Source of the DNA: an uncultured bacterium
Lineage (GTDB): Bacteria; Methylomirabilota; Methylomirabilia; Methylomirabilales; CSP1-5
Length of the DNA stretch: 64,000 nucleotides
Reading direction: 5' to 3'
Assembly: GCA_964558395.1 (NCBI GenBank)
Contig: CAZLDS010000006.1
Location: forward strand, 18,402-82,401
Every line of letters starts with the position of its first letter. The stretch's first letter is position 1. This document shows, one piece after another, positions 1,586 through 18,046 of the stretch. The translations under genes and the position numbers were made by a program. The notes beneath the pieces were generated by a model. It saw only the letters and a program-made list of their open reading frames with translations, searched no databases and was not told the DNA's origin.

Positions 1586-3385
1586 ATGGAGACGAAGCGA
1601 CAACACCTCGAGAGCGCTTTGAGCTACGTTCAGCAGGGAAAGCTGGATCGAGCGATTGCTGAATACGAGGCGATCCTCCGGGGTGATCCCAACGACTCCA
1701 GTGTGCTGAACGCGCTGGGAGATCTGTGTGCCCGGACGGGGAGTAAGGCGGACGCCATCCGATATTTCTCACGCCTGGCCGAAGCCTATCGAATTGACGG
1801 CTTGTATGTACGCGCCGTGGCTGTTTACAAGAAAATGCTGAAGCTTGACCCCTTGAACGCGGAAGCCTCGCTGGCCTGTGGGGAGCTGTACGCCGAGCAG
1901 GGGCTGGTCGCGGAAGCCAAGCTGCAATTCCAGGGGCTGGCCGACCATTACCTGAGGCGGGGTAATATGAATGGCGTGGTGGGGATGTATGAAAAGATGA
2001 TCCGAATAGATCCGGGACACCGCCCAACTTTGCATAAGCTTGCGGGGATCCTCGTGAGACCCGGGCGGGTAGAGGAGGCCTTGAACAACCTCAATGGTTT
2101 GGGCGAACGTCTCGTCGGAGCCGGACAGGTAGAAGATGCTGGACAGATTTTCGAAAAGGCAGTGGAGCTCTTGCGATCTCAAGGGCGGGAGGCGGATGCG
2201 GTACGCTTCGCGCAGGGGCTCGATGCTCTGGGTTCTCCTGGGGCGGGACTCGAGGATGCAACAGCGGCCCTTTCTCCCGGGGAAGGAATTAACCTGGACG
2301 CGGAGCGAATACTCGCGGAGGAAACTTCCCCCCTGCAGATCTTCCCAGAGTCGCTTCTCGAAGAGGAAGGGGTATCGGCTCTGGAGGCGCCCGAGACGAT
2401 TGGGGAAAGATTGCAGCCCGATCTCGAGGACACGGCATCCCTTCATGATAAAGGCCTCTCCGTGGAGGATGCGGTGGAGGTCGATATCTCCATCGACGCA
2501 AGGACCGAATCCTTTGGGCGGATGGAGCCCGCGGCTATCGAGCTGGATCCCTCAAGGGAATCCGCAGAGCTGGTCCCCATTGCAGCAGAACCGTCAGAAA
2601 CTAGACGAGGGGTGGAGCCACAGACGCTGGAAGAGGAGCTACAAGAGGCGAACTTTTTCATGCAGCAGGGGATGCTCCAGGAGGCCCGGGCCATCTTCCA
2701 GCGGATTCTCCTACAGGATCCGGAACACCAGCTGGCTAAACAGCGCTTGGCGGAAATCGAGGGAGTAACACCAACGCCGACGAGTGAGGAAAGTCCTCGG
2801 CCGGATGTGAAAAAGCCGTCACTCTTTCGGGTGACTGACGCGAAAGCTCCTGAGGGGGAGTTTGTGGACCTTGCCGGCGAGTTGAATGCTGATCTGGGTC
2901 TGGCGGAGTCGTCTTCGTCGGCAGATCTCGAGCCCGAAGTGCAGGATCTGTTGTACCAACTCGATCAAGGGATCCGCGACCAACTCGACGTCGCGGACTA
3001 TGAGACACATTATAACTTAGGACTGGCTTATAGGGACTTGGAACTCTACGAGAAGGCCATTGAAGAATTTCGGCTGGCCGCCAAGGACGCTGCCCATCGG
3101 ATTCGGTGCGCAAGCCTTATCGGTCTCTGCTATTTAGCCAAGGGGGAGCCTGAACAGTCGGTACAGGAATTCCTCAAGGGGCTTGCGGTGGCACAGAGGG
3201 GCACCGAGGAACGGTGGGCGATCCTCTATGATCTCGGCACGGCGTATGAGGCATTCGGGGACCTAAGAAAGGCGCTTGAGACTCTGACGACCATCCATAG
3301 CGAGGCGCCGAAGTTTCGAGACATTCGCGTACGAATCCGGGACGTGAGGGCCCGTATAGCAAAGATCCGAGGGTCCTCGCGATAA
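1586..3385 (+). CDS. TPR-repeat protein with acidic, low-complexity central linker
   Basis: 599 aa. TPR-like helices at both ends (AIAEYEAILRGDPND, YNLGLAYRDLELYEKAIEEF) and a Glu/Asp/Pro-rich middle. Confidence 0.6.
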   Translation: METKRQHLESALSYVQQGKLDRAIAEYEAILRGDPNDSSVLNALGDLCARTGSKADAIRYFSRLAEAYRIDGLYVRAVAVYKKMLKLDPLNAEASLACGELYAEQGLVAEAKLQFQGLADHYLRRGNMNGVVGMYEKMIRIDPGHRPTLHKLAGILVRPGRVEEALNNLNGLGERLVGAGQVEDAGQIFEKAVELLRSQGREADAVRFAQGLDALGSPGAGLEDATAALSPGEGINLDAERILAEETSPLQIFPESLLEEEGVSALEAPETIGERLQPDLEDTASLHDKGLSVEDAVEVDISIDARTESFGRMEPAAIELDPSRESAELVPIAAEPSETRRGVEPQTLEEELQEANFFMQQGMLQEARAIFQRILLQDPEHQLAKQRLAEIEGVTPTPTSEESPRPDVKKPSLFRVTDAKAPEGEFVDLAGELNADLGLAESSSSADLEPEVQDLLYQLDQGIRDQLDVADYETHYNLGLAYRDLELYEKAIEEFRLAAKDAAHRIRCASLIGLCYLAKGEPEQSVQEFLKGLAVAQRGTEERWAILYDLGTAYEAFGDLRKALETLTTIHSEAPKFRDIRVRIRDVRARIAKIRGSSR

Positions 3386-3517
3386 GGGATGGTGAGCTGT
3401 GTTAGGTTGGACTCTCCGGGCACCAGATTTCCTTGATCAGAGGCAAGGTGCCGTCTTGGAGGATGCCCTCGGTTAAGGACGTGGTCCGCTCGCTCACATG
3501 ATGCCAGGTGGCCTCCA

Positions 3518-4087
3518 TTGAATCTGCCGAATACGCTTAGCCTGGTTCGAATCTTCCTTGTCCCCTTTCTTGTCGTTTTCCTGATCGCCACCGCTGAACC
3601 CCGGAATTATTTGGCGGCGGGCATCTTTGTTGCGGCGGTCTTTACCGATTGGCTGGACGGTCGGATCGCTCGGAGCCGCAGGCAGGTCACCACACTTGGG
3701 CAGCTGTTAGATCCCATCGCCGACAAGCTGTTGATTGCGGCGGCGCTTATCTCTCTGGTAGAGATCCGGCGGGTGGCGGCCTGGGTGGCCACAGTTATCA
3801 TTGGGCGAGATATTGCGATCACCGGACTCCGCAGCATTGCCGCGTCCCAGGGGCTCATCATTTCCGCCTCGCAGCTGGGAAAGTACAAGATGGGGGCGGA
3901 GGTGATTGCCGTGATTCTGCTCATCCTCGATCCCGGGGTCTCACGGGTTATCGGTCTCGCTCTTACCCTTGGAGGGTTGGCGCTCGGCGTGGCGCTCGTC
4001 TTGAGCGTTGCCTCCGGGATCGACTATTTTGTGCGCTTTTGGCGACAGCTCGGCCTTGGAGTAACGGTCCAATCCAAAGGGGATTGA
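3518..4087 (+). CDS. pgsA: CDP-diacylglycerol--glycerol-3-phosphate 3-phosphatidyltransferase
   Basis: 189 aa. CDP-alcohol phosphatidyltransferase motif DWLDGRIAR...[12 protein letters not shown]. Multiple TM segments. TTG start. Confidence 0.8.
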
Positions 4088-5710: not shown

Positions 5711-6402
5711 AGCTTCCAGCATTTGAGGGGCCGTTGGACTTGCTACTCCATCTCATCCGGGTCGACGAAGTCGACATCTACGATATTCCGATCGCACGGA
5801 TTACCGATGAGTACTTCCAATACCTTGCCTTGCTCCAAGAGTTGGATCTTGACGTCGCGGGAGAATTCCTCGTTATGGCAGCCACCTTGGTGTATATCAA
5901 GTCGAAAATGCTGTTACCGGCTGACCCATCTGCACCCGAGGAGCCACTCGCAGAGGACCCCCGGACCCCATTGGTCGATATGCTTTTGGAGTATCAGCGC
6001 TTTCGAGCGGCGGCCGAAACGTTGTCGGGGCGAGAGGATCAGCAACGACAGTTTTTCTTTCGTTCGATCCCCCTGGAAGTTCCTGCGGGGGGAGAGACAC
6101 TTGAGGTGAATCTTTTTGACCTCCTTGCGGCGTTTCGGGAAGTGCTCGAGCGTGCCAAGGATCAGCCGGTCCTGGACATCGTTGCTCGGCCGGTGACCAC
6201 GGGCGAGCGGATGGTGGCGATCCTAGATAGGGTTGCAGTGGAAGCTTCCGTCAGCTTCGGATCGCTGTTTCCACCAGGCGCGGATCGGCGCACCGTGATC
6301 ATAACCTTCCTGGCCCTCTTGGAGCTTCTGCGGCAGGGATCGATCCGTGTCCAGCAGCGGCTCGACTTCGGCGAGATTGTCGTCATGCGAGCCCTGGCAT
6401 GA
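5695..6402 (+). CDS. scpA: segregation and condensation protein A (kleisin)
   Basis: 235 aa. FEGPLDLLLHLIRVDEVDIYDIPIARITDEY is typical of the ScpA N-terminus. Overlaps scpB. Confidence 0.85.
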   Translation: MVYQVKLPAFEGPLDLLLHLIRVDEVDIYDIPIARITDEYFQYLALLQELDLDVAGEFLVMAATLVYIKSKMLLPADPSAPEEPLAEDPRTPLVDMLLEYQRFRAAAETLSGREDQQRQFFFRSIPLEVPAGGETLEVNLFDLLAAFREVLERAKDQPVLDIVARPVTTGERMVAILDRVAVEASVSFGSLFPPGADRRTVIITFLALLELLRQGSIRVQQRLDFGEIVVMRALA

Positions 6403-6971
6403 GCCAAGATCAGATGGCAATTTTGGAAGCGCTATTATTTGCCTCTCCTGATCCTCTCTCGATCGAGCACCTCCAGGTAATCCTGGGCGACGTAGAGAAA
6501 GAGAGGGTAGTCAGTCGCCTCAGTTCTCTTCAGGAAGCGTATGAAAAGAATGGTTCAGGGCTCACGATCGTTCAGGTCGCCGGTGGCTTTCGGATGTCGA
6601 CGCGCCCTGATCTCCACCCGTGGCTCGGTCGGCTGGCCAGGACGCGCCCCGCGCGGCTTTCGCGACCGGCCCTTGAAACGCTAGCCATCATTGCCTACCG
6701 GCAACCGATCACGAAGACTGAAATTGAGGCCGTCCGCGGCGTCTTGGTGGACGGGGTCCTCAAGACTCTCATGGAGCGAGATCTTATCCGGGTCCTCGGG
6801 CGAAAGCGGGAGGTCGGCAGGCCGCTTCTCTACGGAACCACGCGAAAATTTTTAGAATATTTTGGTTTCCACGATATTACCGAGCTTCCCTCCACTCAGG
6901 AGATCGAAGCCCTCATCCCGCCGCGACAGGACACAGATGAGACCATGAGGGCGGAGAGAGAAGATTCTTAA
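6399..6971 (+). CDS. scpB: segregation and condensation protein B
   Basis: 190 aa. LEALLFAS..PLS, ETLAIIAYRQPITKTEIEAVRGV, GRPLLYGTT..FLEYFG. Confidence 0.85.
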   Translation: MSQDQMAILEALLFASPDPLSIEHLQVILGDVEKERVVSRLSSLQEAYEKNGSGLTIVQVAGGFRMSTRPDLHPWLGRLARTRPARLSRPALETLAIIAYRQPITKTEIEAVRGVLVDGVLKTLMERDLIRVLGRKREVGRPLLYGTTRKFLEYFGFHDITELPSTQEIEALIPPRQDTDETMRAEREDS

Positions 6972-8196: not shown

Positions 8197-9321
8197 GTGA
8201 AGCGTAAGGACAAATCGCTTGCAGAGTTGGCACAGCCCCATGTTCTCGGGCTGATCCCATATGGCCCGGGGAGACCGATTGAGGAAGTGAAGCGAGAGCT
8301 CGGCCTTGACGAAGTGGTCAAGCTTGCCTCCAACGAAAATCCCCTGGGACCCTCCCCATTCGCCGTACAGGCCATTCGGGAGGCGCTTCAAGGGCTTCAC
8401 CGGTATCCGCATGGAGGCTGTCACAGCCTACGGCAGCGGCTGAGTCAGCACCTGGACGTGAGACCGGAAGAGCTCTGCTTCGGAAACGGAAGCAACGAGC
8501 TCTTGGAGCTCGTTACCCGCGCCTTTTTGGGACCGGAGGATGAGGCGGTCATGGGGGATCCGGCCTTTGTGGTGTATCGGCATGTATGTCAGGCTGTCGG
8601 ATCCAAGATCCGAGAGATCCCGCTCAAAGATTATACGCACGATTTGCGTGGGATGTTGCAGGCGGTCACTGCTCGGACGAAGCTCGTCTTTCTGGGAAAC
8701 CCGAATAATCCTACGGGAACGTGTGTCGCGCCGACGCAGTTGTATGCGTTTCTGGAAGCGCTTCCCGGGCATGTTATCCTCGTTGTGGATGAGGCATACC
8801 GGGAGTATGTGCCGCTGGATCTCCAACCAGACCTTCTTGGGTACATCCGGGATGGACGTTATCTCCTCACGCTGCGGACCTTTTCGAAAGCGTATGGTCT
8901 CGCGGGACTTCGGATCGGCTACGGAATTGGGCCTGCCGAGATGGTAGAAATTCTGAACCGGGTGCGACAACCCTTCAATGTCAATGCCTTAGCCCAGCAG
9001 GCGGCCTTGGCTGCGCTTGATGATACTGCCCACCTCGAGGAGACATTGCGAATCACTGAAGTAGGCCGAAGAAGCCTCCAGGGCCACTTGGACGAGATGG
9101 GACTTTCGTACGCTCCGAGTGTGACCAACTTCATTCTCGTCGACGTCGGCGTTGAGGGCAAGGTGTTGTCCCACAGCCTCCTTCGTAAGGGAGTTATTGT
9201 TCGGTCTATGGAAGGGTATGGTTTCCCCACACATATTCGGATAACGGTGGGGATACCGCAGGAGAATACGCGCGCGATCAAGGCGCTCGCCGACGCGCTC
9301 GACGAGGCGAGACAGCGGTGA
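8197..9321 (+). CDS. hisC: histidinol-phosphate / aromatic aminotransferase (class II PLP enzyme)
   Basis: 374 aa. KLASNENPLGPSP, NPNNPTG, LRTFSKAYGLAGLRIGY (PLP lysine motif). Confidence 0.8.
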   Translation: MKRKDKSLAELAQPHVLGLIPYGPGRPIEEVKRELGLDEVVKLASNENPLGPSPFAVQAIREALQGLHRYPHGGCHSLRQRLSQHLDVRPEELCFGNGSNELLELVTRAFLGPEDEAVMGDPAFVVYRHVCQAVGSKIREIPLKDYTHDLRGMLQAVTARTKLVFLGNPNNPTGTCVAPTQLYAFLEALPGHVILVVDEAYREYVPLDLQPDLLGYIRDGRYLLTLRTFSKAYGLAGLRIGYGIGPAEMVEILNRVRQPFNVNALAQQAALAALDDTAHLEETLRITEVGRRSLQGHLDEMGLSYAPSVTNFILVDVGVEGKVLSHSLLRKGVIVRSMEGYGFPTHIRITVGIPQENTRAIKALADALDEARQR

Positions 9322-9355
9322 GGTCATGGGGTTCCACAGGGACGGGGAGTGAACC

Positions 9356-10369
9356 ATGATCATCGTCATGCGATCCGGCGCCACTCAGGCAGACATTGAC
9401 CAGGTCGTGGAGCGCATTGCGCAGCACGGATTAAAGCCTCATATCTCGACAGGCGTGGAACGGACGATTATCGGGGCCATTGGAGATGAACGGGTCCTGC
9501 GCAATGTCCCGTTCCAAGCATTGCCCGGGGTCGAAGAAGTTCTTCCCATCCTGAAACCCTTCAAGCTTGCCAGCCGAGATTTTAAAGCCGAGCCAAGCGT
9601 GGTCGAAGTCAATGGCGTGGCCATAGGAGGGAAGCGACTGGCCGTGATTGGCGGCCCCTGCTCGGTGGAGGGGCGTCAGATGCTGTTGGATATGGCACGA
9701 GTGGTCAAGGAGGCGGGGGGCACGCTGCTGAGGGGCGGGGCTTTTAAACCGAGGACGTCCCCCTATTCGTTTCAAGGGCTAGGAGAGGAGGCCCTCAAGT
9801 ATCTAGCTGAAGTTCGGGAGGTCACCGGACTGCCGGTGGTCACTGAACTGATGGACCCTCGGGACGCAGAGCTCGTCATGAAGTATGCCGACATGATCCA
9901 GATTGGCGCCAGGAACATGCAAAACTTTCGACTCCTCAAAGAGGTGGGTATCCATCGCAAGCCGGTCTTCTTAAAACGAGGAATGAGCTCCACGATCAGC
10001 GAGCTCCTCATGTCGGCCGAGTACATCATGTCGGAGGGAAACTACAACATTGTCCTGTGCGAGAGGGGCATCCGGACATTCGAGGACTACACGCGGAACA
10101 CCCTGGATCTATCCGCGGTGCCGTCCCTCAAGCAGCTCTCTCACCTTCCAGTCATCGTCGACCCGAGTCACGCCGCGGGGAAGTGGGATCTGGTCGCCCC
10201 GCTTGCCTTGGGGGCCATCGCCGCCGGTGCCGATGGCCTGATGATCGAGGTGCATCCACAACCGGGGGAGGCCTTGTCGGATGGACCCCAGGCCCTGCTC
10301 CCCGAACGGTTCACGGTGCTCATGCAACAGATACGGGCCTTGGCGCCCATCGTGGGACGGACCCTGTAA
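9356..10369 (+). CDS. aroF: 3-deoxy-7-phosphoheptulonate (DAHP) synthase, type I-beta with N-terminal regulatory ferredoxin-like domain
   Basis: 337 aa. N-terminal [32 protein letters not shown] domain, then [31 protein letters not shown]. Confidence 0.85.
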
Positions 10370-10451
10370 ATACGATGAGAAACCTCCGACAACCGATCGC
10401 CCAATTCAGACCCTCATCGGACTTCGGTCATCGAACGATGGACAGTGCACT

Positions 10452-11339
10452 ATGAACGGTGAACCGATCTTTGAACGGATGGCGGTAATCGGCGTAGGCC
10501 TGATCGGTGGCAGTCTGGCTCAGGCGTGCCGGGGCGGGATCGCCCGTCGAGTCATTGGCCTCGATGTTGATCAGGAGCACTTGAAACAGGCGGTTGCCCT
10601 TGGTCTCGTGGATGACGTGGGCGACTTTCCTGGCGGGGTCGAGGGGGCCGATCTCGTTGTCGTCGCGGTCCCGGTCGGAGCCGTTGTGGATGTGGTCCGT
10701 GCTGTGGGGCCGCACCTGGCGGGTGGGTGTATCGTGACCGACGTGGGAAGCGTGAAGGGGGCTCTCGTCACCGAGGTAGAGGCCGGGATCCCGCCCGGTC
10801 GGGAGTTTGTCCCCGGTCATCCCATCGCGGGTACCGAACACTCTGGGCCCGGAGCCGCCGTATCTACCCTCTTTCAGGGCAGCTTGTGTGTTCTCACACC
10901 TACCTCGCGGAACGCGGAGGCCGCGGTCAAAAAAATTGTTCGTCTGTGGGAAAAGGTGGGGTCACATGTGGTCCTGATGGACCCTTTTCGGCACGATTAT
11001 ATCTTCGCCCTTGTGAGCCACCTGCCGCATGTGGTCGCCTACGCGCTCGTCGGAACGATTCTGAACCATGAGGACGGCGGGGAGGAGCTCTTGCGGTTCA
11101 GCGCTGGAGGGCTTCGGGATTTTACCCGGATCGCGGCCTCTCATCCGATCATGTGGCGCGATATCCTGATCCGAAATCGCGGCGAGGTGCTGAAATCCAT
11201 CGCCAGATTCCGCGCGGTCCTTGGGCAGATTGAGGAGATGATTGAAACAGAGGACGGAGCCTGTTTGGTCCAGGAGTTTCAGCGGGCTAAGGAGGTGCGT
11301 GAGCAACTTGGTTCGGCAGGCTCCCCACCGGTTCGGTGA
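10452..11339 (+). CDS. tyrA: prephenate/arogenate dehydrogenase
   Basis: Listed ORF starts at 10281, but the Rossmann motif MAVIGVGLIGGSLA follows the ATG at 10452. GHPIAGTEHSGP and SHLPH motifs. Confidence 0.85.
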   Translation: MNGEPIFERMAVIGVGLIGGSLAQACRGGIARRVIGLDVDQEHLKQAVALGLVDDVGDFPGGVEGADLVVVAVPVGAVVDVVRAVGPHLAGGCIVTDVGSVKGALVTEVEAGIPPGREFVPGHPIAGTEHSGPGAAVSTLFQGSLCVLTPTSRNAEAAVKKIVRLWEKVGSHVVLMDPFRHDYIFALVSHLPHVVAYALVGTILNHEDGGEELLRFSAGGLRDFTRIAASHPIMWRDILIRNRGEVLKSIARFRAVLGQIEEMIETEDGACLVQEFQRAKEVREQLGSAGSPPVR

Positions 11340-12472
11340 AGGCAATGCCCTTTTCTCGGCGTGAGGTGGCGCTCCTCGTGGGACTCAGACGACCTTATCA
11401 GTCTCGTTGGGAGGTGGAAGATTCCTTGGAGGAGCTCGTTCAACTGTCGGTCTCCGCAGGGGCCGATCCTGCCTTCTGCGTCGTCCAAGAGCGAGCCATG
11501 CCCAATCCTCGTACCCTGATCGGTCCGGGGAAAGCTCAGGAGGTCAGAGAAGTTTGTGAAGAGGGGGTCGATCTGGTCATCTTTGATGATGACCTGACCG
11601 GTTCCCAACAGCGGAATCTTGAGGCGACACTGCAGCGAAAGGTCATCGACCGGACGGGGCTCATCCTGGATATCTTTGCGCAGCGGGCCCGGTCAAAGGA
11701 GGGAAAGCTTCAGGTCGAGCTCGCCCAGCTCAAATATCTGCTTCCGCGCCTCACGGGCCATGGCAGTGACCTATCGCGGCTTGGCGGTGGAATTGGAACG
11801 CGGGGTCCAGGCGAGACCCAACTCGAAGTGGACCGTCGCCGGATTCGACGCCGCATCGTCAAGATTGAAGGGGAACTCGAGGGGGTCCGCCGCCATCGGG
11901 CGCTGTTGCGTCGACATCGACAGAAACAGGCCCTCGCGACGGTAGCCCTCGTGGGCTACACCAATGCAGGCAAGTCGTCACTCTTGAATGCGCTGACCCA
12001 CGCTACGCTTCCGGTGGCCGACAAGTTCTTTGCCACCGTGGATCCCACCTTGCGGAAGGTAATCCTCCCCGGCGGCCGGGTGGTTCTCTTGTCCGATACC
12101 GTCGGGTTTATCAAAAAACTTCCCCATCAGCTGGTGGCGGCATTCAAAGCGACCTTGGAAGAGGTCCGGAACGCGGACCTCCTGCTCCACGTGATCGATA
12201 TTTCCCATCCCCAGTGGCAAAGCCAGGAGCAAGGGGTGATCGCGGTTTTGGAGGAGCTGGGAGTTGCGACAAAGCCACTGATCAACGTTCACAACAAGGT
12301 GGATAAACTCCCCTACCCGGAGGGGGTGACATTTCTTTCCCGGAGGCCCCAATCGGTGGTGACGTCAGCGAGGACCGGTGCAGGACTGACGGAGCTTAAG
12401 ACTGCCATTGCAGAGAGCCTGAACACCCTCGACGAGGCGCGGGCTCGCTCCGAAGCGAGGGGCCGGGGCTGA
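11336..12472 (+). CDS. hflX: GTPase HflX
   Basis: 378 aa. QLAQLKYLLPRL, GIGTRGPGETQLEVDRR, G1 motif GYTNAGKSSLLNAL, DTVGFI. Start overlaps the tyrA stop. Confidence 0.9.
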   Translation: MKAMPFSRREVALLVGLRRPYQSRWEVEDSLEELVQLSVSAGADPAFCVVQERAMPNPRTLIGPGKAQEVREVCEEGVDLVIFDDDLTGSQQRNLEATLQRKVIDRTGLILDIFAQRARSKEGKLQVELAQLKYLLPRLTGHGSDLSRLGGGIGTRGPGETQLEVDRRRIRRRIVKIEGELEGVRRHRALLRRHRQKQALATVALVGYTNAGKSSLLNALTHATLPVADKFFATVDPTLRKVILPGGRVVLLSDTVGFIKKLPHQLVAAFKATLEEVRNADLLLHVIDISHPQWQSQEQGVIAVLEELGVATKPLINVHNKVDKLPYPEGVTFLSRRPQSVVTSARTGAGLTELKTAIAESLNTLDEARARSEARGRG

Positions 12473-12476
12473 GACG

Positions 12477-12818
12477 TCACAACCGGTGATCGAGTGCCGC
12501 CTGAGCCTCACGATCAAGCGAACCCTCAAGGTCCCGAAAGCCGCTCAGCTTCTCTATAGAATCCAGAACATCCAAAATCTCGTGTAAAATAGCTGCCATT
12601 AAGCGAAGCTGCAAAAACCACCGCCCGGCAGCCAGTGTCAGGGCCGCGGGGTTGACGGGTATCCGTTTGTGCGTGTCTGCCCAGGCGACTATATAGGCTA
12701 GGTCGTTATACCCAGCCATTAGTCGCAAGAGATCGACTGCCAATGGATCAGAAGATGGAAATACCTTTGCAACGGGAAAGGTGTAAACACCCCGTCTCTT
12801 ATGTGGTTTTTTCGACAT
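12477..12818 (-). CDS. hypothetical protein (orphan)
   Basis: Listed ORF is 12477..12824 with a GTG start. The ATG at 12818 has GAAGGTG about 10 nt upstream. No recognisable motif. Convergent with hflX. Confidence 0.4.
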   Translation of the reverse strand: MSKKPHKRRGVYTFPVAKVFPSSDPLAVDLLRLMAGYNDLAYIVAWADTHKRIPVNPAALTLAAGRWFLQLRLMAAILHEILDVLDSIEKLSGFRDLEGSLDREAQAALDHRL

Positions 12819-13152
12819 AAGCACCTTACACCTTCGGGCAAGATGTTCAGGGCGGACCCAGGTCCCGCCTGAGTATACCGAGGACTATCTATCACCCGCA
12901 AGGATCTGTGTGAACCTTACTACTCGGGCGCAGAACCCGTGACCTGCTGATTACCTATCAGGATCGTCTCAAAAATTCCAAGAACATCATGCCCTTCCAA
13001 GGTCCTGCTACCACGCTGCTACCGGCATTACCCCGCCCAAGGCCGCCAAAAGGGCCCGCCTGCTGAGCGATGTACCCTCCATTAGATCTTGCTCCTGCCT
13101 CGACCTACTTCGAAGAATGTCTCACGGCCCCACCCCGTGATTCCGATTGGCA

Positions 13153-13182
13153 TTGACAAAGACGGGCGAAAAAAGCTAGATT
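13153..13182 (+). promoter_or_regulatory. orphan sigma70-like promoter
   Basis: TTGACA (13153-13158), 18-bp spacer, TAGATT (13177-13182). Same TTGACA / TAGnnT style as promoters in front of core operons in this window. Confidence 0.5.
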
Positions 13183-13188
13183 CTGGGC

Positions 13189-13259
13189 GAAGTTATTAGG
13201 ATCTTTGGACCTACCAGATAGGGGGCACGGGGAGAGCCAGTATTGCTCCCCGGTTTTTT
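13189..13259 (+). ncRNA. candidate ~70-nt small RNA (promoter-to-terminator unit, no ORF)
   Basis: Predicted TSS is about 7 nt after the -10. No ATG lies in the interval. Ends in a 7-bp GC-rich hairpin (13228-13234 / 13246-13252) followed by T6 (13254-13259). Confidence 0.4.
13228..13259 (+). terminator. rho-independent terminator of the sRNA candidate
   Basis: CGGGGAG...CTCCCCG stem, 11-nt loop, then GTTTTTT. Confidence 0.55.
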
Positions 13260-13595
13260 ATTTCTAGGGGCGAGCGTAAGCGCAGGCCCTGAGGTACCCT
13301 GAACCGTCTGTGGAATGGCCTTTGCGCCGCCGACTTACATCCCAGTCGACCTGCCCTGAGCCCAGCCGAATGGGCCTACCCTGAGCGAGAGCGCCATGGG
13401 CTTCGCCCCGAATGGGCGGCTCTGGCGAGTCCATATACATAATGGTGATGTTGGCTGTCGGAGGGCCCTAATCCCTCAACTCTGCCCCCTCCGCTTGTCC
13501 TAAGCTTGTCGAAGGGCTCGACTATCGGAATTGAGGTCGTGGTGGGCGGTCGTCGGTCATCGGTCAGCGACATCATAGTGCCGAACATCAATGAG

Positions 13596-13636
13596 GCACC
13601 GGAAGGGGCGTAGGGCCCCCGGTGCTTTTTGGTTTT
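13596..13636 (+). terminator. rho-independent terminator-like hairpin 54 nt upstream of the HD-UDG gene
   Basis: GCACCGG (13596-13602) pairs with CCGGTGC (13619-13625). Inner GGG/CCC pairs. Followed by TTTTTGGTTTT. The 3' arm and T-run form part of the 24-bp direct repeat. Confidence 0.5.
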
Positions 13637-13639
13637 GTG
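13616..13639 (+). repeat. direct repeat copy 1 (CCCCCGGTGCTTTTTGGTTTTGTG)
   Basis: Perfect 24/24 match to 14788-14811. Read directly from the sequence. Confidence 0.9.
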
Positions 13640-13689
13640 CCCCTTATCCCCCCCGGCCTTGAGATAAGGCCCGCTCACTTGGTACTAGG

Positions 13690-14769
13690 ATGCTCAAACT
13701 GACGCATAAGTTTGACGAGGCACTGCAGTACGCGAGCGATCTACACAGGGACCAACCTAGGAAGGGCACCAAGATCCCCTATGTTGCGCATCTCCTGGGT
13801 GTAACCGCGCTGGTCCTGGAAGAGGGAGGGGACGAAGATGAGGCGATTGCGGCCCTATTGCACGACGCCGTAGAGGACCAAGGCGGGCAGGCAACCTTGA
13901 CGGAAATTCGTAAGCGATTTGGTGCACGCGTAGCCCTGATTGTGGAGTCGTGTAGCGACAGCGACACGATACCCAAGCCGCCGTGGCGTGAGCGCAAGGA
14001 AGGGTACCTCGCGCGCATCCGGCACGAGCCCGCAGGCGTGCGGCGCGTATCTATCGCCGATAAGCTTCACAATGTACGCGCGATCCTCACTGATTTCCGA
14101 ACCATGGGAGACGCGGTCTGGAATCGGTTCAACGCGCCAAGGGAGGACATCCTTTGGTACTATGAGAAGCTAGTCGCGGCCTTTCAAGAGGCGGGATCGA
14201 GTCCCATGGTCGTGGAGCTGGATCGGGTCGTCACCGAACTCAAGCGCCTCGTGTCTACCCCAGATCTAGAGCAACTACGGGTGAGGTTCAAGCCCGACAA
14301 GATCAAGGTCCTCTTCGTCGGCGAATCCCCGCCAGCTGACGGCACCTTCTTCTACAAGGCGAACTCGAATCTTTACCGCTACACTCGGGAAGCCTTTCTC
14401 TCAGTCTTCGACTGTGCATGCGATGCTGGGGAGGACCTTCTGAATTTTTTCAAGAATCGTGGGTGCTACCTTGACGACCTGTGCCTCGAGCCAGTCAACC
14501 ACCTAGCGAAGATTGCGCGTCAGCGTAAACGCGATGAAGGTGTCCCGATTCTCGCGGGCCGAATTTACGAGAACAGGCCTGAGGCTATCGTCGTTGTGAT
14601 GTCGGCGATCAGAGACGAAGTTGCGCGATCAGCCCCAAGTGCCGGACTTGGATCTGTTCCTTTTCATGCTGTCCCGTTTCCCGCACAAGGGAATCAAAAA
14701 AAGTATGTTGCGCAGTTGGTCAAGGTTCTTCAAGAACTGAAGGATAAAGGGATAATCGAAAGCAGCTAA
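13690..14769 (+). CDS. fusion protein: N-terminal SpoT/RelA-type HD hydrolase domain (small-alarmone-hydrolase-like) + C-terminal MUG/TDG-like uracil-DNA-glycosylase-fold domain
   Basis: 359 aa. N-terminal half has DLHRDQPRKGTKIPYVAHLLGV, AALLHDAVED and VSIADKLHNVRAIL, the (p)ppGpp-hydrolase HD pattern. C-terminal half has KVLFVGESPPADGTFFY (compare GINPG/GEAPG motif A) and FHAVPFPAQGNQ (compare xPNPSG motif B). Confidence 0.7.
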   Translation: MLKLTHKFDEALQYASDLHRDQPRKGTKIPYVAHLLGVTALVLEEGGDEDEAIAALLHDAVEDQGGQATLTEIRKRFGARVALIVESCSDSDTIPKPPWRERKEGYLARIRHEPAGVRRVSIADKLHNVRAILTDFRTMGDAVWNRFNAPREDILWYYEKLVAAFQEAGSSPMVVELDRVVTELKRLVSTPDLEQLRVRFKPDKIKVLFVGESPPADGTFFYKANSNLYRYTREAFLSVFDCACDAGEDLLNFFKNRGCYLDDLCLEPVNHLAKIARQRKRDEGVPILAGRIYENRPEAIVVVMSAIRDEVARSAPSAGLGSVPFHAVPFPAQGNQKKYVAQLVKVLQELKDKGIIESS

Positions 14770-14787
14770 TAGGCTGGGCCCATCCGC

Positions 14788-14811
14788 CCCCCGGTGCTTT
14801 TTGGTTTTGTG
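14788..14811 (+). repeat. direct repeat copy 2 (CCCCCGGTGCTTTTTGGTTTTGTG)
   Basis: Perfect copy of 13616-13639. Lies 19 nt after the HD-UDG stop and 12 nt before the ATG at 14823. Confidence 0.9.
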
Positions 14812-14822
14812 GGGCATAGGCA

Positions 14823-15230
14823 ATGGCTCGTCTTGAAGACCTAACACGAGGCGCACAGGTCCACGGCCTCCGCCCAGACGGTCCGGCTGCCATTGTGGAC
14901 GTGCAGTGGCACGGATCCACCTGTGTTGAACTCACCTACAAAGATGCCAGCGCTCGCCCCCACACCGAGCTCGTCTTCAGAGACCGGGAACCAACCCTCG
15001 ATCTTGTTGCCGCTGGTCAGGTTTGGTCCTTCGATGCCGACGGCCCCTCCACACATATAAGACCGTTTCTTCGAAAGTATCGTGGTCTTACAAATTTCAC
15101 GCGGAATGATGATCAGGGATGGAAGGCAGTACGCGCACGCATGGCGGCGCATACTTGGTCTAAGGGAAACCGCGAAGGAGGCATTCTGTCGCAGGAAGCG
15201 GAGAAAGAATACTGCTTAAGCGTCCGCTGA
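14823..15230 (+). pseudogene. stub of a large helicase-type gene (only ~77 N-terminal codons look native)
   Basis: MARLEDLTRGAQVHGLRPDGPAAIVDVQWHGSTCVELTYKDASARPHTELVFRDREPTLDLVAAGQVWSFDADG resembles, from memory, the conserved N-terminal domain of big SNF2/DEAD-type helicases found in defence islands. After about nt 15055 the composition drops and the remaining 58 codons look non-native. Confidence 0.35.
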
Positions 15231-15387
15231 GGCTCCACGTGCGGTTACCGAGTTATCATTCCCCTCGCAATCCCTACCGGTGTGGCAGGGGTTAAATCTT
15301 GCTTCCCGCTGACACAATTGACTCCTTCTTGGGCGCAGCTAGGCCCATCAAGGCCGTTTTGCGTCGAATAGACAAAGGTGGAATAGG

Positions 15388-15853
15388 ATGCTTTACTTCG
15401 CATATGCCTCAAATATGCACTGGAAGCAGATGCGCGGACGATGTCCCTCTGCACGATTTCTTTGTGTGGCTAAATTGAAGGACCATCGCCTCGCTTTCAC
15501 ACGTAAATCCGAAACCAGAGGCGGCGGAGTTGCGGATGCCGTTTCAGAGCCTGGTGATGAAGAGTGGCGTGTCGTCTATGAAATAGATGAACGCGACGTC
15601 GGACGGCTAGACCAGACAGAGGGTTTCACACTCGGCAGATCGCGAAATCCGTACAACAGAGAAGAACGTCACGTGTATGCCGATGGCGAAGAGGGAAAAC
15701 CTTTGGCGGTTTCAATTTATATTGCAGTGCAACAGGATAACCCTCCCCCCCCCGAACGCGGCATACAAGAAACTTATTGTCGGGGGGGCAAAATTCTGGC
15801 ATCTTCCGCCAGATTACATCAAGAAACTAGAACAGATACACGTTGGACCTTGA
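15388..15853 (+). pseudogene. gamma-glutamylcyclotransferase-like (GGCT/AIG2 family) gene with frameshift in a C9 run
   Basis: MLYFAYASNMHWKQMRGRCP..A..LKDHRLAF...VVYEIDERDVGRLDQTEG is the GGCT pattern. Removing one C from 15745-15753 restores ...NPPPPNAAYKKLIVGGAKFWHLPPDYIKKLEQIHVGP, with a stop at 15851-15853. The tail of the listed 196-aa ORF (to 15978) is out of frame. Confidence 0.7.
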
Positions 15854-16025
15854 ATCTTGACATTTCCCCTTCAGCGATGGTGGCGTGGAGACGAGATCGT
15901 CGCTCGTCGTCGTCCACTACCCCCTACGTTTTCGGAATTGCGAAAATGTCACGTGTACGGGGTCAGAGACAGGAATAGAGTGAGACGCTGATATTTTTGT
16001 CTTGTAAAGAGGGGCAGATCACCCG

Positions 16026-16481
16026 ATGTCTAATAAAGGGGGTTTTGGGGTGAAACATTGTTTTTGCAAAGTTGTGTCTGGGATGCTTCTTGGATACCTT
16101 GCAATCGGGGCAATGGTTGTTGAGGCGGGTAGCGTATACAAAAACGTCGACAATGCTTCACAGGAGATGGCCGAATATCTTACAACGCATTCTCCTTTCT
16201 CTGGCTATTGGTACTTACACAATAAGCAGGGTAAGCTAACAGTCAAGTTTGAGATCACAAAGGGAGAGTTAGCGGGTGAAATTCTAGACACGACTGGCAC
16301 GACTTTTAGCTTCGAGGGTCCTGTTGCAAATCTGAAGATAGAAAACCAAGTCCTCACCTTCAATAGTGTGACGGGTTCTTTCTACCAGCTAGAACTCGAC
16401 GAAGGTGAAGGAAAACTGCATGGAACAGCTTTAAGTGGACGAGCTGAAGTAATAACCCATGCAAAAAGTGCCAAAAAATAG
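16026..16481 (+). CDS. hypothetical secreted/membrane-anchored protein (AT-rich orphan)
   Basis: 151 aa. Hydrophobic N-terminal segment VVSGMLLGYLAIGAMVV. Beta-rich remainder with no recognisable motif. Markedly AT-richer than flanking DNA. Confidence 0.5.
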   Translation: MSNKGGFGVKHCFCKVVSGMLLGYLAIGAMVVEAGSVYKNVDNASQEMAEYLTTHSPFSGYWYLHNKQGKLTVKFEITKGELAGEILDTTGTTFSFEGPVANLKIENQVLTFNSVTGSFYQLELDEGEGKLHGTALSGRAEVITHAKSAKK

Positions 16482-16556
16482 CCACCCGGGGAGAGGTCGG
16501 GTCGTGAATTGTGATATTCCCCACCCTTCAAAAGGGAGACAGGCTGCTGTTGTGAG

Positions 16557-17090
16557 ATGAAGCTTGAGTGTTATGGGGCGACGAGGCCGCAGGAGGGGCG
16601 GACGGCGAACGAGGACGCCTTTCTGATAGTGCGAGAGGGGACTGCGGTTGCAGCGGTCTGTGACGGCGCGGGGGCCGCCGAGCAAGTTGCCAAAAGAGTA
16701 CTGAGGCTCTTCGAGTTATGGGTCCGCGAGGCCACTCTCGGTCAGATCCTTGCCCCCAAGACGTGGGTCAGCTGAGTCAAAAAGCTGGACTCAGCATTAC
16801 TCGGAGGTTCAGAAAGCACGTTCCTGGCAGCCGCCGTAGCGGGTAATCAAGTTGTCGGTGTCTCGGCCGGCGACTCGCAGGCGTATCTGGTCGGCGCTGA
16901 GGGCGGCTTTGAGTTTCTAACCACCCCTACCGATAAGTCCAGGCTCGGTAGCGGCAAGGTCCAACCATTCACCTTTAACCTGACCCTGAAGCCCCGCGAC
17001 ATCCTCCTCCTCATGACCGACGGCGCCTGGACCCCCTCAGTCCTTATCACATCGAAAAGGCCGTCCGCAGGGCCGCGAAGGGCGTTTCTT
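16557..17090 (+). pseudogene. PP2C-family Ser/Thr phosphatase-like gene with in-frame TGA (16773-16775)
   Basis: ANEDAFLI, AAVCDGAGAAE, then after the TGA STFLAAAVAGNQVVGVSAGDSQAYLV and ILLLMTDGAW, all in one frame (frame 3). The C-terminal end is uncertain. A possible extra frameshift lies near the C5 run at 17032-17036. Confidence 0.6.
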
Positions 17091-17453
17091 CTGCCCCGCT
17101 CTGGCGGCACCCGGATGGCCGACCCGTGCGGGACTTCTCTCGGGCCTGGGGGGGGCTGTAAGCGAGGAGGGGTGGCCGGGCTATGGGTGCACGATCTCCG
17201 GCGTACCTTCGGCACCCGGGCGCTTGAAAGCGGGGTTGATCTGGTGACCATCCGTGATATTCTTGGGCATGCCAACCTCCGCACCACGGAGCGGTATCTG
17301 TGGCCGGAGGCGAAGCGGCAACGAGAGGCCAGCGAACGGGTGTCAGCGTGGATCGATCGGGCCGCAGCCTCCGGCAGATGGTTCTGTCGAGTCCATGCAA
17401 GTTGGCGAAATAGAAGCCATTTCAGGGATGACGGAAGAGTGAAGCCCAGGTAG
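17091..17453 (+). pseudogene. tyrosine recombinase (phage-integrase family) C-terminal remnant
   Basis: WVHDLRRTFGTRALESGVDLVTIRDILGHANLRTTERYL carries the R-H-R-Y catalytic-box residues. The upstream part LWRHPDGRPVRDFSRAWGG is in another frame, switching at the G8 run 17148-17155. The N-terminal two thirds are absent. Confidence 0.7.
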
Positions 17454-17497
17454 TTGGGAATTATCATGGCATGCCTCGGGCGTAAGGAGCAGGGACG

Positions 17498-18046
17498 GTG
17501 GTCTTCAATGTCCCTAATGGGTTGACGTTCCTTCGCTTAATTCTGGCGCCGTTGATCGTCGTGCTTCTCGTCAACGACGCACACACGTCGGCCCTGATCA
17601 TCTTTCTCCTGGCCGGCATCACGGATGGCCTTGACGGATACTTCGCCCGATCCTTGCGCGAGCGAACAGAGGTCGGGCGGGTCCTTGACCCGATCGCCGA
17701 CAAGATCCTTTTGTGCTCGACTCTCGTTACCTTAGGCTTCCTAGGTCATCTCCCCTTGTGGCTTGTTCTCATTGCCGTGGGCCGTGACGTCATTTTGGTC
17801 CTGGGGTCTTGCCTTCTCTATGCCGTGAGTGGCCGCCTCGGTTATCCGCCCTCAGCGATGGGAAAGCTTGCCACGCTGCTCCAGATCCTCACAGTTGTGG
17901 CGGCCATGATGGTTGGAGGCGGGGATCTCCTGCTGGTACTTCTCGTGTGGGGGACAGCAGCCGTGACCATCCTGTCTGGACTCGACTACATGTACCGGGG
18001 GGCAGTTGAGTTGATCTTCGGCTCGCGGAACGCCTCGCCTGCCTGA
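17498..18046 (+). CDS. CDP-alcohol phosphatidyltransferase family protein (second pgsA-like paralog)
   Basis: 182 aa. GITDGLDGYFAR..GRVLDPIADKIL motif. Multiple TM segments. GTG start. Confidence 0.75.
   Translation: MVFNVPNGLTFLRLILAPLIVVLLVNDAHTSALIIFLLAGITDGLDGYFARSLRERTEVGRVLDPIADKILLCSTLVTLGFLGHLPLWLVLIAVGRDVILVLGSCLLYAVSGRLGYPPSAMGKLATLLQILTVVAAMMVGGGDLLLVLLVWGTAAVTILSGLDYMYRGAVELIFGSRNASPA

Follow-up and report, generated by a model that had tools for sequence, protein, structure and literature searches.

A small alarmone hydrolase joined to a predicted uracil-DNA glycosylase-fold domain in a degraded genomic island of a Methylomirabilota bacterium

The fusion gene

A degraded island in the genome of an uncultured bacterium of the Methylomirabilota (lineage CSP1-5) contains an intact gene in which a small alarmone hydrolase (SAH) of the HD type is joined to a domain with the predicted fold of the uracil-DNA glycosylase (UDG) superfamily. 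The DNA analysed is a stretch of 64,000 nucleotides (GenBank assembly GCA_964558395.1, contig CAZLDS010000006.1, positions 18,402 to 82,401 of the forward strand), termed here the window, and all coordinates of the locus refer to it. The gene lies at 13690..14769 on the forward strand. Its open reading frame (ORF) is complete from ATG to stop codon and encodes a product of 359 amino acids, and an in-frame stop codon at 13660-13662 rules out a longer N-terminus. An earlier interpretation made from the letters of the DNA, the sequence-only reading, had placed an intact gene at just this position, and every motif that it quoted is present in the order and at the position given. In the N-terminal half these are LHRDQPRKGTKIPYVAHLLGV (residues 18-38), LLHDAVED (residues 56-63) and IADKLHN (residues 122-128), and in the C-terminal half VLFVGESPPADGTFFY (residues 207-222) and HAVPFPAQGNQ (residues 326-336).

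The two domains follow one another with hardly any intervening sequence. The last helix of the SAH domain continues, after about five residues, into the helix that opens the standalone UDG-like proteins. The AlphaFold model of the full-length protein has a mean predicted local distance difference test (pLDDT) score of 94.8 and a predicted template modelling (pTM) score of 0.76, and the pLDDT at the junction is 84-92. When the gene is compared with its 74%-identical orthologue at locus L001, the ratio of non-synonymous to synonymous substitution rates (dN/dS) is 0.27 overall, with values of 0.22 for the N-terminal half, 0.11 for the junction and 0.34 for the C-terminal half. Both domains and the join between them are therefore under purifying selection, and the gene encodes a two-domain protein that has been kept by selection.

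How widespread is the fusion? In a collection of about 15 billion proteins the full-length form is found in only three clusters at 90% identity. These are that of the window protein, that of P0002 and P0383 (74% identity, with the partial members P0381 and P0382), and that of P0003 (71%). The architecture had not been recognised in the sequence-only reading, and a full-text literature search combining 'small alarmone hydrolase' with 'glycosylase' returned no paper. Both domains come from known superfamilies; their combination is undescribed and very rare. The fusion is a rare, lineage-restricted event. We considered whether it might reflect a widespread pairing of SAH and UDG-like genes in operons, and rejected this on finding no SAH gene within 10 kb of the UDG-like gene at about 130 other loci.

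The N-terminal domain

Residues 1-185 (13690..14244, forward strand) form an SAH domain of the RelH type, bearing out the SpoT/RelA-type HD hydrolase domain of the sequence-only reading. Residues 11-154 match the Pfam family HD_4 (PF13328) with E = 1.2e-24 and 87.2 bits against a cut-off of 27.2, and this half of the protein also matches the hydrolase end of TIGR00691 (RelA/SpoT). The top match among PDB sequences is 7QOE (E = 4.4e-56, residues 3-184, 49% identity), followed by 7QOC/7QOD, Lmo0812, the human and fly MESH1 proteins and the hydrolase domains of long Rel proteins; 4YF1 is also matched. 7QOE is RelH of Leptospira levettii and 7QOC/7QOD is RelH of Corynebacterium glutamicum; both are SAHs, for both of which ppGpp hydrolysis has been reported (PMC9293644). 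The residues mutated in the C. glutamicum enzyme, R24, E62, D63 and N126 (PMC9293644), correspond to R24, E62, D63 and N128 of the fusion protein. The metal-binding residues H34, H58-D59 and D124, the ED pair E62-D63, and R24 and N128 are all present and conserved.

The standalone relatives of this domain number in the thousands, with about 198 amino acids and 60-76% identity to the N-terminal half, and among the 120 best-scoring relatives listed most are 197-224 amino acids long. In an alignment with 38 of the standalone proteins, 79 positions show at least 90% conservation among the standalone SAHs; the fusion proteins share 74 of these, and the five differences are conservative and non-catalytic. 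The N-terminal domain thus looks like an unmodified SAH. On sequence grounds we assign it as a canonical RelH-type SAH, for which (p)ppGpp-type alarmones are most likely to be the substrate. It resembles the RelH enzymes of C. glutamicum and L. levettii, and the more distant MESH1, Lmo0812 and PaSAH/Aph1, in the HD_4 fold, the catalytic and metal-binding residues and the domain length. The difference lies beyond the domain: known SAHs have one domain and about 200 amino acids (180-210 is the usual range), whereas at 359 amino acids the fusion protein has a second folded domain, a C-terminal UDG-fold domain of 167 residues.

Other multi-domain forms occur within the same SAH clade (P0004-P0007, P0093, P0022 and P0075). 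Tandem HD-HD proteins of 380-440 amino acids are found among them, P0093 is an SAH-CYTH fusion, and others carry unassigned C- or N-terminal extensions.

The C-terminal domain

Residues 193-359 (14266..14766, forward strand) comprise the second domain, whose assignment is based on AlphaFold modelling, Foldseek and family-level matches to PF03167. The sequence-only reading had proposed a UDG fold here from the motifs, and modelling with structure search bears this out. A model of the C-terminal half built on the family alignment has a pLDDT of 95.4 and a pTM of 0.92. When this was compared with the PDB using Foldseek the best 47 matches were all members of the UDG superfamily (TDG, MUG, SMUG1, UdgX, vaccinia D4 and UNG), with E-values of 4.4e-6 for TDG and 4e-5 for MUG, template modelling (TM) scores of 0.5-0.68 and sequence identities of 9-17%. 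The first match outside the superfamily has a TM score of 0.38. Viral UDGs were likewise recovered from BFVD using the same model, and PF03167 matches 41 of 65 family members (E <= 0.1), the best with E = 8.9e-8. The prediction that the C-terminal half has the UDG-superfamily fold is therefore robust at the level of the model.

A search with residues 189-359 recovered 196 relatives, nearly all of them standalone 'hypothetical' proteins of about 170 amino acids, two of which are 75% identical to the window protein. A profile made from 65 members extended the family to 2,223 representatives of 50%-identity clusters at E <= 1e-3, of which 1,356 remain at E <= 1e-10. A search of PHROGs with the C-terminal half gave weak noise only.

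The residues that are invariant in the family fall into three groups. The motif A region, G211-E212-S213-x-P215 followed by F220-F221-Y222, comes directly after strand beta1 in the model and reads GESPP..FFY in the window protein. Y260-L-D-D263-L-C265 lies at the end of beta2 and is followed by N270. The third group, P331-F-P-A-x-G-x-Q (PFPAQGNQ in the window protein), comes after beta4 in the manner of motif B, with non-canonical residues. In the model, these groups sit in the places where UDGs build their pocket. A weak hhalign alignment of the family with E. coli MUG (E = 0.057) puts PFPA-G on PNPSG, and D263 on K68 of MUG, which is the position of N191 in TDG and N204 in UNG. Of the cysteines, just C259 and C265 are conserved; the four-cysteine motif of an Fe-S cluster is lacking.

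To which of the known UDG families might the domain belong? Human TDG and E. coli MUG (family 2) are the best structural matches (Foldseek E-values of 4e-6 to 1e-4, TM scores of 0.58-0.68), sharing the four-strand alpha/beta/alpha topology, and the stretches that resemble motifs A and B appear to fall in matching places. At 9-17% identity, however, the Asn of GINPG is replaced by Glu212 of GESPP, and the base-reading Asn or Lys by Asp. The MUG/TDG likeness put forward in the sequence-only reading therefore holds for the predicted structure and fails in motif A, where the defining catalytic Asn is missing. We rejected membership of family 2 on this replacement and on the lack of an NCBIfam or PDB sequence match. 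Motif A is GEAPG in family 4, GLAPG in family 5 and GEQPG in UdgX. Family 4 and UdgX thus have Glu at the second position of the motif, as does the present domain, and UdgX is among the fold matches. Compared with family 4, family 5 and UdgX, however, the domain is smaller and has neither the four-Cys cluster motif, nor the His of motif B, nor a profile match. Membership of families 4 and 5 was rejected, since C259 and C265 are the only conserved cysteines and both the motif B His and an NCBIfam match are lacking. We regard the family as a separate clade of the UDG superfamily that has yet to be characterised. Its pocket signature, GESPP..FFY, YLDDLC..N and PFPAxGxQ, marks about 2,200 clusters at 50% identity that carry no annotation.

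Brig1, Brig2 and Brig3 are UDG-superfamily antiviral enzymes that excise modified phage bases, and they invite comparison. They have the superfamily fold in common with the present domain, and are single small proteins of defence islands. An acidic base-reading residue is essential in Brig1 (E147) and in Brig3 (D127), and the present family has an invariant Asp there. Brig1 (about 260 amino acids, motif A GLNPG) and Brig3 (more than 230 amino acids, with N50-P51-S52 as motif A, and also N225) are longer than the domain and differ from it in motif A, Brig3 being compared through its described residues only. Membership of the Brig1 family was rejected, the hhalign probability being 0.1% with a single aligned column (Brig1 sequence from the supplement of PMC11078745). 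Brig3 acts together with an accessory hydrolase, BapA, which de-glucosylates DNA so that Brig3 can work.

Neighbours of related genes

The sequence-only reading had suggested that a search for the full-length protein would show whether the fusion recurs and what flanks it. It does recur, and at L001 and L144, where the flanks of the fusion gene could be seen, there are HNH_2 and MazG-like genes upstream and RadC and methylase genes downstream; at L001 the HNH_2 gene is at 716-1636 and the MazG-like gene directly upstream of the fusion. At L002, the locus of a 75%-identical standalone protein, we find GmrSD_N (1905-3608), the UDG-like gene, RadC, an N6_N4 methylase, a ResIII/SNF2 helicase and SMODS. 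A member of 56% identity (L003) follows SIR2_2 and HEPN_AbiV genes, and in each of three further contigs (L077, L078 and L079) the UDG-like gene is paired with an HNH_2 gene. At L065 the order is DUF499, DUF1156 and PLD-SNF2, then a fusion of the UDG-like domain with a GGACT domain (P0302/P0386), and then GmrSD_N (9209-11179) and GIY-YIG. HNH_2 and GmrSD are types of modification-dependent restriction nuclease, and their repeated adjacency hints that the family deals with modified DNA. The island association proposed in the sequence-only reading thus stands for the subclade nearest to the fusion protein; it does not stand for the C-domain family as a whole, for which a family-wide defence association was rejected on the mostly housekeeping neighbours seen in 59 genomes, as discussed below.

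GGACT is not the only addition to the UDG-like domain; a ribbon-helix-helix (RHH)/UPF0175 module and DUF6946 are also found. In at least nine clusters the domain bears, at one end or the other, a module of about 75 amino acids (consensus RPGxPLRxLLRxGxIPHAYQ..WxIPHS; P0170, P0248, P0249, P0259, P0263, P0281, P0350 and P0367 carry it), which has no Pfam model and gives a faint hint of HTH_17. A second small recurrent module is present on the UDG-like domain of P0313, P0335 and P0349. A gene at 7182-7739 of L065, directly upstream of the UDG-GGACT fusion, encodes a protein of 185 amino acids with weak similarity to GDSL/SGNH hydrolases, and two members of the UDG-like family gave weak matches to Lipase_GDSL_2.

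The degraded island

The degraded island that holds the fusion gene spans about 5 kb (12473..17497) between hflX (11336-12472) and pgsA (17498-18046), and was delimited from the ORF map, the GC content and the gene fragments. Its surroundings are housekeeping genes (hisC, DAHP synthase, prephenate dehydrogenase, der and sdh). The GC content inside is 0.54-0.575, against 0.58-0.61 in the flanks, and a search of the island for tRNA genes found none. The sequence-only reading had described a decaying island, and with an integrase fragment and other broken genes that description is apt.

Directly downstream of the fusion gene is an ORF of 135 amino acids (14823..15230, forward strand), the first 75 residues of which (14823-15047) are the N-terminus of an HmaA-type SNF2/DEAD helicase (PADLOC HmaA, E = 2.4e-14). 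The match spans positions 1-75 of a profile of 1176; the remainder of the helicase is gone, and the ORF contains no Pfam domain. This is the former large helicase gene of the sequence-only reading. HmaA belongs to Hma, a candidate defence system of helicase, methylase and ATPase defined in PADLOC. Only the HmaA stub survives in the window, there being no methylase or ATPase ORF in the 12.4-17.5 kb region, and the fusion gene is no described component of Hma. In a relative, at L065, the UDG-GGACT fusion comes right after the DUF499, DUF1156 and PLD-SNF2 system, which is Hma-like.

A gene for a GGACT/AIG2-like gamma-glutamyl(amine) cyclotransferase (15388..15853, forward strand; Pfam GGACT, 5e-7) lies 620 bp downstream of the fusion gene. 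It carries one frameshift, in a run of nine C at about 15742-15753. This might have arisen in assembly, in which case the gene would be intact, or it may reflect a phase-variable tract or a young pseudogene. The fusion gene had been called the only clearly intact enzyme of the island; intact it is, but the GGACT gene falls short of this by just one homopolymer frameshift. The repaired product of 154 amino acids aligns end to end with the GGACT domain of the UDG-GGACT fusion P0302 (E = 1e-26). The association of GGACT with the UDG-like domain is thus found in two forms, within one protein and between neighbouring genes.

At the right edge of the island, adjoining pgsA, is a C-terminal fragment of a tyrosine recombinase (integrase; 17013..17453, forward strand; Pfam Phage_integrase, 1.7e-9), covering only positions 129-166 of a profile of 172 with its last 40 or so residues. 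A weak PP2C fragment is also present. Two further ORFs complete the island. One of 115 amino acids (12477-12824, reverse strand) has no match in Pfam, PADLOC or PHROGs, and one of 151 amino acids (16026-16481, forward strand) has a hydrophobic N-terminus, no match in Pfam or PADLOC and a single insignificant match in PHROGs (E = 0.035). A tblastn comparison of the island with all the neighbours of the gene at L001, L002 and L003 found nothing but the gene itself; the window therefore keeps no MazG, HNH, RadC or methylase gene.

A search using a 78-amino-acid query from the helicase N-terminal stub gave 41 matches (P0388-P0428), all of 47-133 amino acids, with no full-length helicase among them. 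At the edge of a defence island in L141 (10001-10819) a stub of 67 amino acids is directly followed by an ORF with NOV_C, a helicase C-terminal domain. Such recurrent stubs might stem from internal deletions or from integration at the site, unless they reflect a biased search.

Function of the fusion protein

It is quite possible, though we hold the view tentatively, that the protein is a two-activity enzyme, combining an alarmone hydrolase with a base-excising module that acts on modified foreign DNA. The first domain would be a metal-dependent HD enzyme removing the 3'-pyrophosphate from (p)ppGpp, and possibly from (p)ppApp; it would have been captured recently, and would work unchanged alongside the second domain. 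The latter would flip a base out of DNA into its pocket and then cleave the N-glycosidic bond, with Glu212 of motif A activating water, Phe220 and Phe221 stacking, and Asp263 reading the base. With an acidic residue in the base-reading position, an amino-bearing base such as a modified cytosine seems a likelier target than uracil. From the relatives that lie beside GmrSD and HNH_2, RadC with methylase and SNF2, SIR2 and AbiV, and an Hma-like system, together with the island and the HmaA stub of the window, we infer action on modified foreign DNA, and by analogy the glycosylase-like domain might operate in the manner of Brig1, Brig2 and Brig3. The fusion gene would then have a role in defence, which the sequence-only reading had raised together with counter-defence. 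The step that we hold most loosely is the reason for including an SAH. It might detoxify alarmones made by toxins of the toxSAS type or arising on infection; alternatively it might release the cell from stringent arrest.

A number of observations weigh against this picture. Some concern the assignment of the second domain. PF03167 matches the fusion protein itself with only 14.5-17.1 bits (E = 0.006-0.037), below the cut-off of 24.3; none of the 65 C-domain members matches an NCBIfam UDG family; the family profile finds no UDG chain among PDB sequences; and motif B has neither the His nor the Asn of known UDGs. The PADLOC models, moreover, give no match to the fusion protein. Others concern the genomic context. 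Across 59 species-representative genomes of the wider C-domain family, the immediate neighbours are heterogeneous and mostly housekeeping, including an FtsZ-like gene (in nine Clostridia), SHMT (in Acidobacteriaceae), purL/purM, UvrC and UvrD. In an Armatimonadota genome (L004, CP070648.1) the standalone UDG-like gene at 6001-6528 is found inside a pur operon, between purL and purF-purM. Since most neighbourhoods are ordinary, the association with defence comes down to a handful of loci. The nearest standalone SAHs are also located in ordinary, housekeeping contexts. Searches for the C-domain family found no member in 50,697 phage genomes and a single one in plasmids, in an uninformative context. 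Finally, the lack of any SAH near the 130 or so other UDG-like genes means that there is no independent sign of a functional linkage between the two activities.

Much of this would be expected if the fusion were incidental, neighbouring genes for a stringent-response hydrolase and a DNA-repair glycosylase having lost the region between them, and the two domains retaining separate housekeeping roles with no part in defence. The housekeeping surroundings of most C-domain members, with a lineage-specific synteny consistent with vertical inheritance, the ordinary contexts of the nearest standalone SAHs, and an SAH domain unchanged from the standalone proteins all agree with this, as does the want of a linker, which is what loss of a stop codon and spacer should leave. 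We nevertheless consider it unlikely. All three known contexts of the fusion or of the 75%-identical standalone protein are mobile or of defence type, the window copy is in an island of low GC with an integrase remnant and the stub of a defence helicase, and no ancestral neighbourhood of SAH and UDG-like genes was found among the 130 or so loci. Alternatively the C-terminal domain might be directed to nucleotides rather than to DNA, binding or cleaving a free nucleotide as a sensor that gates the HD domain or as a nucleosidase; possibly the whole would form a two-step enzyme degrading nucleotides or alarmones, perhaps with the MazG-like pyrophosphatase. The MazG-like gene directly upstream of the fusion at L001 might be read in this way, as might the small size of the domain with its motif B devoid of His or Asn, and the moderately confident packing of the two domains (pTM 0.76) could reflect a functional interface. 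However, every significant structural match is a DNA glycosylase, other members are fused to HTH-like, RHH and other putative DNA-binding modules, and family members adjoin nucleases that target DNA, making a nucleotide-directed role distinctly improbable.

There are two further proposals. The attached hydrolase, HD here and GGACT in relatives, might remove a blocking group from a hypermodified phage base that the UDG-like domain then excises, for example a pyrophosphate on a 5-hydroxymethyl pyrimidine intermediate or a gamma-glutamyl-amine adduct, so bringing the logic of Brig3 and BapA into one polypeptide or operon. It would explain why the UDG-like domain has been fused to different small partners of hydrolase type (HD in the window protein, GGACT/AIG2 in P0302) and why a gene homologous to the fused GGACT domain lies so close downstream in the window, and the de-glucosylation of DNA by BapA for Brig3 offers a precedent. 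Yet thousands of standalone SAHs share 65-76% identity with the HD domain, whose catalytic positions are kept, so that a change of substrate is unlikely, and SAHs are not known to act on a pyrophosphate linked to DNA; we judge the proposal very unlikely. The gene might instead be counter-defence cargo, part of a module of UDG-like protein, RadC, orphan methylase and helicase that shields the DNA of an integrative or conjugative element, with the SAH blunting alarmone-mediated abortive responses of the host. Phages and plasmids carry SAH, MazG, RadC and orphan methylases; RadC and methylase genes come after the gene at L001, and RadC, methylase and SNF2 helicase are found at L002; and there is an integrase remnant in the window island. 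However, a family that is absent from the phage genomes, found in a single plasmid and without a PHROG match is poorly placed for such a role, and genuine defence nucleases, GmrSD, SIR2 and AbiV are found in its neighbourhood. The probability that the gene is cargo of this kind seems slight indeed.

SAHs are taken to be stringent-response enzymes with a single domain. If, as in the two-activity enzyme that we tentatively favour, an SAH has been fused under selection to a DNA-glycosylase fold on defence-type islands, this would tie alarmone turnover to the surveillance of DNA bases; no such link has been described before. UDG-fold enzymes, namely Brig1, Brig2 and Brig3, have been recognised as antiviral effectors only recently, and the recurrent partners of the present clade (GGACT, HNH_2, GmrSD and the HTH-like module of 75 amino acids) provide testable ideas on the modified bases that it might recognise. 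As a long shot, the family of about 170 amino acids might constitute a new class of base-excising immune enzymes directed against hypermodified phage DNA, whose varying fusion partners (the SAH-type HD pyrophosphohydrolase in the window protein, the GGACT cyclotransferase in P0302 and small HTH-like modules) strip the decorations first and so lay the target base bare. Were that so, the two-protein strategy of Brig3 and BapA would be generalised to modular single polypeptides, and an enzyme of the SAH fold would have gained a substrate linked to nucleic acid.

A hairpin and direct repeat bracketing the gene

The fusion gene is bracketed by a perfect direct repeat of 24 nt, for which zero matches are expected by chance. 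The upstream copy (13616-13639) forms the 3' arm and U-tract of a GC-rich hairpin of 14 bp (13593..13639, forward strand, -26 kcal/mol), located 50 nt upstream of the start codon. The downstream copy (14788..14811, forward strand), 19 nt past the stop codon, comprises the 3' arm and U-tract without the 5' arm, and this truncated hairpin suggests a deletion breakpoint. An Rfam scan of the island gave nothing above noise and left the hairpin unmatched, and the hairpin motif had no match in viral contigs.

Hairpins that are related but differ in their apical stems occur between the UDG-like gene and radC at L001 (3286-3348) and L002 (4243-4310). They sit between a sigma70-like promoter (TTGACA-17-TATATT) and the start of radC, within an intergenic region of about 290 nt that is highly conserved between the two loci, an arrangement more in keeping with a leader or attenuator than with a simple terminator.

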